A stretch of DNA of 64,000 bases from Flaccisagitta enflata (taxonomy: Eukaryota), in assembly GCA_965153355.1 (NCBI GenBank), contig OZ231126.1, forward strand, positions 34,100,001 to 34,164,000. The letters run 5' to 3'. This document shows, in pieces, positions 3,595 to 26,624 of this stretch (positions are counted from its first letter, which is position 1; the number at the start of each line of letters is the position of its first letter). The notes under the pieces were generated by a model that was not told the DNA's origin, searched no databases, and worked only from the letters and a program-made list of their open reading frames with translations. A program made the translations under genes and the position numbers.

Positions 3595-3827
3595 TCAAAT
3601 GGTTGGATCTTGATTTGGACAAAGTTTACTACCTCTGCTTGTGACTGATGCTGTTTTTGTTGTTGTTGATAGTGGTGATGTTGTTGTCTTTGATGGGGCG
3701 TTTGTTGTCAATGATGGTGGTGACCTCGTTGTTGTTGTTGGTGACATAGTTTTTGATGTTGCTGACCCCGATGATGCACCTGATGATATTGTGATATTTG
3801 GTGACATTGTAGAGACCAAAGAAAAAT
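3595..3827 (-). CDS. Ser/Thr/Pro-rich (mucin-like) exon, probable 3' exon of the F5/8C-repeat gene
   Basis: Polypyrimidine tract + catgtag|AT acceptor in phase 1 matches donor CCAG|gtgag at 5707; encodes [42 protein letters not shown]...DPTI*. An internal AG|GTAGT donor is possible. Confidence 0.6.
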
Positions 3828-24800: not shown

Positions 24801-26624
24801 TCTGCTTGGATATTTGAAGAGACAAAAAATATCTTCTGGGCCAGCAAGATTGTAGCAACTTTGACGCACATCGAAAGATTTTACGATTTAATGAATTTAA
24901 AATTTTTTTATTTAACTTGGTGAATCTCTTACCTTTCTGTGAACTGTAATCAGGGCTTTTAAACCTAATGATATGAAATTTGACCCAATTCCCGACCAAC
25001 CTAATAAAAAGACTCAAAGCAATCCCCATGCAAATCACCGTACAATTACCAGTAAAATCATATCATTGTGAATTTTATACACCAAGCAAAGCTGTATTAA
25101 GATAGATACACAGATGCAGATGGCAACAAGAATCAAATACTGCCTATTAGCCACAAAATCATAGAGTAGCTAAAACCCACTGCCTAAATAATCCCAATCA
25201 TTTAAGAATTTTCATGAGCAACACAATGCTATATCATATGATAAAATATCATAAAATATCAACATACATTATGCCAATGAAGGCAACATTTAGGAATTCA
25301 ATTCTGGTCAAAAATGATACTATGTTTAAAATTTTTTCTACAAGATAAATTTAATCAACTTTTTTTTTCACCTGGGAGAAGATGTGTCTGATTATAATCC
25401 TTAAAGAATTGTAAATCCCTTATGAAAGCAATTTTCTTCCCATCCCACCATCTTCCAGGTGTCATCATGATCTTCAATCTATAATATGTGAATGCTCTGC
25501 AATTTTGGATGACTCGGGTAATCTTGTCCTCATTGTGGCATGTTTGATCAAGAACCACTAGTAAATCTTTCCATGAGTTTCCAGTGCCATTCTGAGACCC
25601 TTGGAACTTGTATCTTAATGGACAATCACTCTGGTCCCTTAGTCCATGTCTTGGTCGAAAGGAAATTCTACAAACAGTTGTTGGCACAGAGAGTTCATAT
25701 TGAATCCATTGAGGCATTCCTTCCCGAGATTCCCATTGTGTTGATTTGCCTGAAAATGGAAGGAATTAGATTTAACCTTTGCTGAGTTCATTATTACAGT
25801 CAATACCAGAAGCCTTTTCCCTCAACCTAGAAGTACAAATTAAAATAACTAATGCTTTCAATTAGTTAAAGAAAGTTACTTCAATCCAAAGGTTTTGATT
25901 TTCTTAACCAGCAAAATAGGTTGTACCTAAAATTGGATTAGTGAGTACGACAAGTGGGACAACATCATTCACTATACCAAAACTGAAATGAATGGAAGAG
26001 GCCATTGTGAACCCTCACTGACTAGTTGATAGACGCACCACTCCTTTTGAATGTAAACAAATAGAAAAATGATGTATTGCCCATGATGGTTGGTTGCCAT
26101 GGAAACACATTTCCATGCATTCTCACTAAAATCAATATTGCTTAAACTCAAACTTGCTTCAACTGTACTACAATATGTTCTGTAAGAATGACGCTTGTTT
26201 GGCCGTTGCTTGTGTGGCAACCCTGTGATGCTCCCTAGCAACCACTAAATAAGTGACATTCTTACAGAACGCATTGTACAAAAGTTGTGGCAAATTTGAG
26301 TTACAGCAATGTTACCTTAAAAATCTCTCAAATTATGGATATTTTAGCGAGAATACATGGAAATTTGTTTCCATGGCAACCAGCTATCAATGTTATCCCC
26401 TCTTTCACAGACACTCCAACCAACTAACTGACATGGCAACATATAGGGTTCTGTGTCTGTGGCTAAAAGTGTGAATTGGTTAGCAATCACAGGAGAACCT
26501 GTACTTTAATCCTCCTCTCTTGTGAACTGGTTACCTTTAAATGCTTTTTCTGGGCTGTTGCTTTGTCTAAATGTGGATGCCGAAGGGATACCATCTTTTG
26601 CAAGATTAACGTCATGTGCGGGCT
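3595..26624 (-). CDS. Multi-exon gene (5' partial): 9 tandem F5/8 type C (discoidin/CBM32-like) domains + Ser/Thr-rich mucin-like C-terminal exon, ~1480 aa if all exons are joined
   Basis: 19 exons with AG acceptors, 18 with GT donors, all phase 1, no internal stops. Joined module reads [50 protein letters not shown]...[12 protein letters not shown]...YYRLKI...FIRDLQFF, matching the F5/8C pattern NLA-G..AS...AFxG..TxWxS..PQWIQ..FQGS.DG..W..YYRL. Four Cys and NGT/NCS/NQT sequons suggest an extracellular protein. Confidence 0.8.
5707..6923 (-). CDS. F5/8C module (3'-most): exon A 6834-6923, exon B 5707-6087
   Basis: ttcccag|AG...AGAG|gtaac and ttccag|GC...CCAG|gtgag; diverged variant ([14 protein letters not shown]). 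Confidence 0.85.
6309..6636. mobile_element. hAT-like MITE
   Basis: 8-bp TSD TTGCATTA; termini CAGGGGTGTATA / TATACAGGCCTG; empty site in sibling repeat units. Confidence 0.8.
7662..10029. mobile_element. Non-autonomous hAT-like DNA transposon (~2.4 kb)
   Basis: 8-bp TSD ATGATAAA; ~65-bp imperfect TIRs CAGATGATCTGTTATGGCCCCATACTCATAGGGGAAGGCC...; empty site in sibling units. Confidence 0.8.
10161..12400 (-). CDS. F5/8C module: exon A 12311-12400, exon B 10161-10541
   Basis: Intact phase-1 GT-AG exons; KAFIG, STHW and WWDSG variants. Confidence 0.85.
10911..12262. mobile_element. Tc1/mariner-type non-autonomous element with internal palindrome
   Basis: TA TSD; TIR CAGACTGCATGAAAATACAA; shorter relative at 62187-62620. 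Confidence 0.85.
13261..14138 (-). CDS. F5/8C module: exon A 14049-14138, exon B 13261-13638
   Basis: Intact phase-1 GT-AG exons, no stops. Confidence 0.85.
15007..16117 (-). CDS. F5/8C module: exon A 16028-16117, exon B 15007-15384
   Basis: Intact phase-1 GT-AG exons, no stops. Confidence 0.85.
15637..15896. mobile_element. Helentron/DINE-like short element inserted in a T-run
   Basis: Starts with hairpin AGATGCGTCCTTGCATCT, has GTCG/GTTG repeats, ends GGCCTTG; absent from siblings except the copy at 22082-22331. Confidence 0.6.
16985..18446 (-). CDS. F5/8C module: exon A 18357-18446, exon B 16985-17362
   Basis: Intact phase-1 GT-AG exons, no stops. Confidence 0.85.
17740..18331. mobile_element. 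TA-targeting MITE (Tc1/mariner-like)
   Basis: TIR CTATCTAGGCGGAAAAAAT, TA TSD; empty site TTGTTTACAGG in siblings. Confidence 0.85.
19066..19414. mobile_element. hAT-like MITE
   Basis: 8-bp TSD ATACACGC; TIR CAGCAGCGTAGGAGA / TCTCCTACGCCGCAG. Confidence 0.8.
19706..20583 (-). CDS. F5/8C module: exon A 20494-20583, exon B 19706-20083
   Basis: Intact phase-1 GT-AG exons, no stops. Confidence 0.85.
21452..22552 (-). CDS. F5/8C module: exon A 22463-22552, exon B 21452-21829
   Basis: Intact phase-1 GT-AG exons, no stops. Confidence 0.85.
22082..22331. mobile_element. Helentron/DINE-like short element (duplicate of 15637-15896)
   Basis: Same sequence at the same intron position as the 15.6-kb copy. 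Confidence 0.6.
23420..24262 (-). CDS. F5/8C module: exon A 24173-24262, exon B 23420-23797
   Basis: Intact phase-1 GT-AG exons, no stops. Confidence 0.85.
24730..24970. mobile_element. MITE with CATTAGG...CCTAATG termini
   Basis: 7-bp TIR; absent from sibling units; second, interrupted copy at 28622-28661 + 32923-33117 in reverse orientation. Confidence 0.7.
25372..26624 (-). CDS. F5/8C module (5'-most seen): exon A 26535-26624, exon B 25372-25749
   Basis: Diverged exon A ([31 protein letters not shown]) keeps the 90-nt length and splice sites; exon B acceptor ttttcag|GC. Confidence 0.8.

Follow-up and report, generated by a model that had tools for sequence, protein, structure and literature searches.

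A probable nine-module discoidin gene built from near-identical two-exon cassettes in Flaccisagitta enflata

Arrays of tandem discoidin (FA58C, or F5/8 type C) domains are already established in the secreted adhesives of marine invertebrates. Nectin of Paracentrotus lividus is a protein of 984 amino acids (aa) in which a signal peptide precedes six FA58C repeats with 47–55% mutual identity, and FA58C domains recur in the adhesives of sea stars, flatworms, limpets and cnidarians (in the passages of PMC10057474 that deal with these proteins). Akin to Nectin and to echinonectin of Lytechinus variegatus, which the sections concerned describe as secreted extracellular adhesion proteins, the gene reported here carries discoidin domains in tandem and comes from a marine invertebrate. 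It lies on the minus strand of a 64,000-nucleotide (nt) stretch of the Flaccisagitta enflata assembly (contig OZ231126.1, positions 34,100,001–34,164,000), which we call the window and in whose coordinates all positions are given. Compared with Nectin, and going by the architecture described for that protein, this gene has nine modules that are 88–99% identical and, following them, an exon rich in Ser/Thr. Its particular features are how many modules there are, how nearly identical they are, the encoding of each by a cassette of two exons, and a subfamily known so far solely from anonymous environmental transcripts. We consider it likely that one intron-rich gene encodes a chain of nine discoidin domains followed by a Ser/Thr-rich segment, and propose that the product is extracellular and may act as a multivalent binder.

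Exon anatomy and RNA joints

The open reading frame (ORF) listing of the window contains nine minus-strand ORFs of 119–139 aa, all starting MPQWIQYEL, which the original prediction held to be internal exons of one chain. On the minus strand from 26624 to 5707 we found nine two-exon cassettes, each consisting of an exon A of 90 nt and an exon B of 378 nt (modules 1–7) or 381 nt (modules 8 and 9). Module 1 is formed by exon A at 26535–26624, the most divergent of its kind (72% aa identity to the others), and exon B at 25372–25749; then follow module 2 (A, 24173–24262; B, 23420–23797), module 3 (A, 22463–22552; B, 21452–21829), module 4 (A, 20494–20583; B, 19706–20083), module 5 (A, 18357–18446; B, 16985–17362), module 6 (A, 16028–16117; B, 15007–15384), module 7 (A, 14049–14138; B, 13261–13638), module 8 (A, 12311–12400; B, 10161–10541) and module 9 (A, 6834–6923; B, 5707–6087), and behind them the Ser/Thr-rich exon at 3633–3779 (147 nt, 49 aa). 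All of these exons are phase 1-1, in keeping with the symmetric cassettes that had been predicted, and AG acceptors and GT donors are found throughout. Joined in series, the 18 cassette exons and the Ser/Thr-rich exon give 4365 nt and a chain of 1454 aa with no stop codon and with 25 N-X-S/T sequons. When the entire window was searched by tblastn, exactly nine copies of exon A and nine of exon B were recovered and no more, and the Ser/Thr-rich exon proved to be single copy.

Each MPQW ORF corresponds to the 3' portion of an exon B, which starts 32 nt upstream of the ATG. Except in module 1, where it is tttcag, the acceptor of exon B reads ttccag (eight of the nine modules), and at its 3' end the exon reads CCAG/gtra (a slash marks the exon boundary). 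A few codons 5' of each of these acceptors lie an in-frame TAA and TGA (GGT TAA ATC TGA ATC ... CCA G/GC), the upstream stop that the original prediction had pointed out, so that the frame of exon B is not extendable in the DNA; the stop-to-stop ORF at 5687–6103, for example, starts just five codons ahead of the junction codon. The exons A, whose protein ends in ...EKAFR-G, alternate with the exons B; in nine cases out of nine the acceptor is yyyycccag and the donor gtaacc or gtgacc.

Six RNA runs, all marine metatranscriptomes and drawn from three studies, contained 7–9% of the sampled words of 19600–26700, and contigs of runs X1, X2 and X4 (Logan; two studies), together with the poly-A run X7 ('organism A'), were mapped on 3401–23400. 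All the predicted joints have CT..AC ends, that is, GT..AG on the minus strand. Exon B6 is joined to exon A7 (14138/15007) by removal of an exact local intron of 868 nt, at a depth of 67.7 in X1 and 47.3 in X4 (side 91). Joints from exon A to exon B were seen at 14049/15384 (X1 and X2) and 14049/6087 (X4), a further joint from exon B to exon A at 13261/14138 (X2), and the joint from exon B9 to the Ser/Thr-rich exon at 5707/3779 (depth 20 in X1 and 10.9 in X4, side 61). Contigs of 498 nt run from the end of an exon B through an entire exon A into the start of an exon B with zero or one other letters, and exon A7 is contained in them whole, with no other letters and joined on both sides. Across three RNA runs from two studies all three kinds of joint were thus seen, and the 90-nt exon that was proposed to supply NLAKGG...KAFRG is spliced into RNA as foreseen; the passage from exon B to the next exon A, on which the original prediction had staked its case, is likewise present in the contigs. 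Because the predicted joints are carried by RNA contigs, the MPQW ORFs are internal exons and not genes, and with 18 intact exons and a stop-free chain of 4365 nt the anatomy of the gene is far beyond chance.

The 3' end of the array required one correction. The Ser/Thr part had been equated with the whole ORF at 3595–3819, but the RNA joint reduces it to the 147-nt exon, with the acceptor atcatcag at 3780/3779 (a catgtag near 3832, considered as an alternative acceptor, is ruled out by the same joint) and the phase-1 donor AGAG/gtagta at 3633. Among its 49 residues are 28 Ser/Thr and five Pro, and the exon has no match in Pfam. Mucin-type domains are long, O-glycosylated regions rich in Pro, Thr and Ser (PTS) that are usually tandemly repeated. 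A look for a long PTS repeat, a transmembrane segment or an anchor of the gene within the window found none. The 'mucin stalk' of the original prediction is supported in part: mucin-like linker is a fair name for the exon spliced behind module 9, while the word stalk implies an anchor. In X1 (depth 20.4) a joint also leads from the end of the Ser/Thr-rich exon back by 147 nt to sequence resembling its own start, and contigs over 3633–3745 differ from the window at four of 113 letters. This back-joint reflects either a second, variant copy of the exon, situated outside the window or in an allele or paralogue, or a back-splice (circular RNA).

Fold, relatives and recent growth of the array

The spliced module has 156–157 aa, of which exon A provides the first ~30 and exon B the remainder. 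The Pfam comparison that had been proposed, run on exon B alone, returned F5_F8_type_C (PF00754) at 28.5 bits for module 7 and 31.7 bits for module 9 against a cutoff of 28.2; the matches cover profile positions 34–117 and 34–124 of 127, and positions 1–33 correspond to exon A. When the spliced module (module 3) was compared with its relatives, 16 of 18 high-scoring segment pairs crossed the junction of exons A and B, and 13 of the 18 started within the first 11 residues, with alignments to modules of relatives known from cDNA that extend from residue 2–11 as far as residue ~146; the splice is thus supported independently. For exon B of module 7, AlphaFold gave a model with eight strands (mean predicted local distance difference test score, pLDDT, 86.2; predicted template modelling score, pTM, 0.81). 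Foldseek matched this model to 72 PDB chains at E<=1e-3, nearly all of them CBM32 or F5/8C domains, with CBM32/F5-8C modules of bacterial glycosidases on top (query-based template modelling score, TMq, 0.6–0.74), several of which were solved with galactose, N-acetyllactosamine (LacNAc) or Tn antigen. The discoidin domain of muskelin (4pqq) scored 0.66, neuropilin b1 0.52 and the C2 domain of factor VIII 0.48; CASPR2 was matched as well, and a feature search in a language-model atlas also gave F5/8C. Each module carries three N-X-S/T sequons and four cysteines (residues 57, 73, 101 and 114), none of the latter in exon A. From the profile match, the fold matches and the junction-crossing relatives, we conclude that each cassette encodes one complete F5/8 type C (discoidin/CBM32-like) beta-sandwich, as the lectin-like F5/8C module of the original prediction had it.

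A search of 1.84 billion representative proteins returned 116 at E<=1e-3, 20 at E<=1e-10 and two at E<=1e-30. The best match, P0001 (83% identity, 114 aa), is likewise an MPQW ORF and stems from an environmental contig, and the best multi-domain match is P0002 (E 5.5e-41). The longer relatives come from transcript assemblies with contigs of 1.1–5.6 kb (JGI/IMG, ENA, Logan, merc), and 'hypothetical protein' is the sole name attached to the 20 clusters looked up. Of eight relatives scanned, six passed the PF00754 cutoff, with 39–144 bits, and combine the domain with EGF, Lectin_C (C-type lectin), SRCR, FXa-inhibition-type EGF and VOMI domains, a set of partners that looks extracellular and animal-like. 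Five public metagenome gene calls (P0001, P0005, P0009, P0012 and P0053) start at MPQW or MPQS, the same artefact of ORF calling, here in exons B that belong to related genes of eukaryotes. In P0117 and P0122 the sequence continues through this acceptor position of exon B, and the position of the intron is therefore common to related genes. In further searches, none of 18 candidates scored when homologues of exon B were sought among longer proteins; residues 30–1230 of P0124 gave six weak matches, bacterial or 'hypothetical' where a name was given and none a named eukaryote; and of 97 pattern matches in a scan of metagenome contigs the one that passed was an 18-residue match, not a relative. 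By these comparisons the modules appear to belong to a marine discoidin subfamily whose relatives so far come solely from anonymous environmental transcripts.

Two of these relatives were compared in architecture. P0124 (1488 aa, Logan; PF00754 144 bits) shares with the module the motifs AF.G..W.S..G.PQ, C.ISF.PR, DCP and RDL.FF, and seven of its stretches align to the spliced module at 32–41% identity; it has at least seven modules separated by Ser/Thr-rich linkers, then EGF repeats. P0124 differs from the gene described here in that its modules are mutually diverged, EGF repeats form its C-terminus and a signal-peptide-like N-terminus is visible. P0002 (1010 aa, from a JGI/IMG metatranscriptome) contains the closest full module, with 46% identity over 125 aa, and is an extracellular mosaic protein as well, but has just two modules, combined with C-type lectin and EGF domains. 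Among domains of known structure, bacterial CBM32 modules (for example 4a41, 2v72, 2j1e and 2xqx) have the same beta-sandwich fold (TMq 0.60–0.70), are often repeated and bind galactose-type sugars; they differ in being 14–20% identical, appended to glycoside hydrolases and free of introns. The C domains of vertebrate factors V and VIII and neuropilin b1 belong to the same PF00754 family, but match the model less well (TMq 0.48–0.52), bind lipid or peptide ligands and possess a terminal disulfide that is absent from the module.

Between modules the aa identity ranges from 87.8 to 99.4%, with modules 2–7 at 98.1–99.4% and modules 1 and 9 the most divergent, and inner modules differ at two to nine of 468 coding nt. 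The introns are 82–98% identical and vary in length from 375 to 1769 nt (A to B) and from 860 to 3237 nt (B to A); the first A-to-B intron has no blastn match to any of the eight others. The best intron pairs are those of modules 2 and 5 (96%), 3 and 6 (94–97%) and 4 and 7 (98% for the A-to-B intron), which shows that a block of three modules, ~6 kb long, was duplicated recently (2-3-4 = 5-6-7). The array has thus grown by recent tandem duplication that included this block. The ratio of nonsynonymous to synonymous differences (pN/pS) is 0.04–0.52 and lies below 1 in all 36 module pairs, so that the modules are under purifying selection, and the exons are more conserved than the introns.

Within the array introns, the stretches 6350–6570, 15410–16070 and 22080–22740 show high RNA-contig depth on both strands, up to ~500 in X4, and RNA joints also link the intron stretches at 15.7 kb and 22.3 kb. 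These stretches are probably a transcribed repeat that includes a 17-bp ATTCATTCATAAAAAAC array.

Proposed function and competing explanations

We propose that splicing joins the 18 cassette exons and the Ser/Thr-rich exon, one after another, to give an open chain that is 1454 aa or longer. The product would be secreted or extracellular because (i) each module has three sequons and four cysteines, (ii) the linker is of the O-glycosylation type and (iii) relatives have signal peptides and EGF, C-type lectin or SRCR domains. Nine near-identical binding faces per chain could confer avidity where the ligand is repetitive, a carbohydrate being the likeliest one, and putative roles would be adhesion, cross-linking of matrix or mucus, and recognition of particles or microbes, as for sea-urchin Nectin and echinonectin. 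We regard the claim that the product acts as a multivalent binder as evenly balanced between right and wrong, and the same balance holds, separately, for carbohydrate as the ligand.

Several observations weigh against parts of this reading. Neither a 5' exon with start codon and signal peptide nor a 3' end of the gene was found in the window. Among 18 hydrophobic ATG ORFs on the minus strand of 26625–46000 none had a fitting phase-1 donor, a looser scan of the minus strand of 26625–64000 for a signal-peptide exon gave no candidate, and an ATG at 27827, considered as the start of the signal peptide, had no phase-1 donor when inspected by eye; when eight relatives were compared with the window by tblastn in search of EGF, lectin or SRCR exons, nothing outside the array was better than E 0.9. 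Exon B alone clears the Pfam cutoff narrowly. Classical factor V/VIII-type discoidin domains have cysteines near both termini that form a disulfide, and the module is devoid of such N- and C-terminal cysteines. The RNA contigs cover at most about one module, and several exon-B bins have zero RNA depth; most mapped contigs are 95–99% and not at least 99% alike (59 of 238 in X1 reach 99 or more), and many fit two places (31 of 238 in X1, 82 of 272 in X2 and 138 of 505 in X4). For these reasons the number of nine modules per transcript derives from the DNA, and the empty bins together with the degree of likeness suggest that some of the RNA may derive from alleles or paralogues. Run X7 (poly-A) yielded just 14 reads, all partly fitting, and is uninformative on expression.

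F5/8C domains bind lipids and proteins too, and the domains of the array might accordingly recognise a ligand that is not a carbohydrate, such as phospholipid (as the C2 domains of factors V and VIII do) or collagen or another protein (as do DDR, neuropilin and muskelin), in which case the product would not be a lectin but a protein of the matrix or of adhesion. We take this alternative seriously while holding it to be the less probable outcome. The presence of muskelin, CASPR2, neuropilin b1 and factor VIII C2 among the Foldseek matches is in its favour, and sugar-binding residues were not identified in the module. However, the best structural matches are CBM32 modules, several of them with bound galactose, LacNAc or Tn antigen, whereas factor VIII C2 and neuropilin b1 reach just 0.48–0.52, and the relevant passages of PMC2527298 and PMC10057474 describe sea-urchin proteins with tandem discoidin domains as adhesive or as binding galactose.

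The remaining alternatives fare less well. Since every exon is phase 1-1, any cassette could be dropped in frame, and the introns are highly alike, so that modules might be skipped or chosen and their number varied from transcript to transcript as a mechanism of diversity. We consider this unlikely. Extracellular modules are typically symmetric and phase 1-1 according to Patthy's exon-shuffling rule, a general property that is no sign of regulated choice, and none of the RNA joints shows skipping. The sole candidate, 6087/14049, formally passes over 7961 nt, but we attribute it to a mapping tie because the first 57–59 nt of exon B are identical in seven of the nine modules, B7 and B9 included, and the joint rests on 57 nt of this shared sequence.

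It is quite improbable, in our view, that the nine-module array has been inflated by assembly or is partly dead, in which case an allele or paralogue whose modules are fewer would be the source of the transcripts, and part of the modules in the window would be unexpressed duplicates. With contigs no longer than 498 nt, modules cannot be counted, and the frequency of two-place contigs, the exon-B bins devoid of depth and the small differences among inner modules would all fit such a scenario. On the other hand, frame and splice sites are intact in 18 of 18 exons, the pN/pS ratio is below 1 throughout, the joint 14138/15007 corresponds exactly to a local intron, and the modules have private substitutions along with differences in intron length and identity that are not expected from a collapsed or duplicated assembly.

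Equally much of a long shot is the idea of a length-variable locus that tunes avidity, in which unequal crossing-over would vary the number of domains among individuals and splicing would vary it per transcript, which would help a planktonic animal to recognise self and non-self, gametes or microbes. The near-identical cassettes and introns and the fresh three-module duplication suggest that such crossing-over could be frequent, and the back-joint of the Ser/Thr-rich exon would then be part of the variability or a circular RNA. Finally, nine independent small genes, each starting at its MPQW ATG, would agree with ORF lists and with the public metagenome proteins that start at MPQW or MPQS, but we give this explanation practically no credence, for the ATG falls within the domain, at position 34 of the Pfam profile, RNA contigs run from exon A through it, and homology extends upstream over the splice junction.

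Other sequences of the window and wider meaning

The window as a whole has a G+C content of 31–51% with many microsatellites and short interspersed repeats, in eukaryotic style. One interspersed repeat occurs on both strands, at ~2990–3180, 3330–3500, 5440–5690, 28050–28510, 29780–29990, 33030–33290, 43400–44150, 58650–58940 and 59140–59400; its translations read ...RPDTR(L/A)(P/S)KSRAGG.GPYLRS.DHLGRSSE... and (G/R)RTDG repeats, it adjoins microsatellites of the GACG/GTCG type, and one RNA contig joins two of its copies (3425 to 5643). Arrays of a 347-bp satellite at 38711–39722 (2.9 copies) and 41660–42499 (2.4 copies) have consensus units that are reverse complements of one another and thus form an inverted pair ~2 kb apart, the orientation being judged by eye. 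Minisatellites of 20–21 bp (CCCAGCCTCGAGGCCCAAAT and relatives) are located at 31100–31427, 35571–35930, 55475–55740 and 56242–56900, where adjacent blocks have opposite orientation. On the plus strand, 49452–50144 holds an open frame of 230 aa that has no Pfam match and three unnamed relatives in ENA (56–83% identity, lowest E 2.7e-122); the frame may belong to a mobile element or be a lineage-specific gene. Pfam applied to 14 other ORFs of the window gave one sub-threshold NPP1 match and nothing else.

No known principle is changed by the discoidin gene. A row of what an ORF track presents as small genes is one large extracellular gene on our reading, and the same mis-call recurs in public metagenome protein sets. 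The array offers a clean example of very recent amplification of a whole domain. If its ligand is a glycan, the product would be a nine-valent lectin from an organism abundant in the plankton, relevant to adhesion, mucus or the capture of particles.

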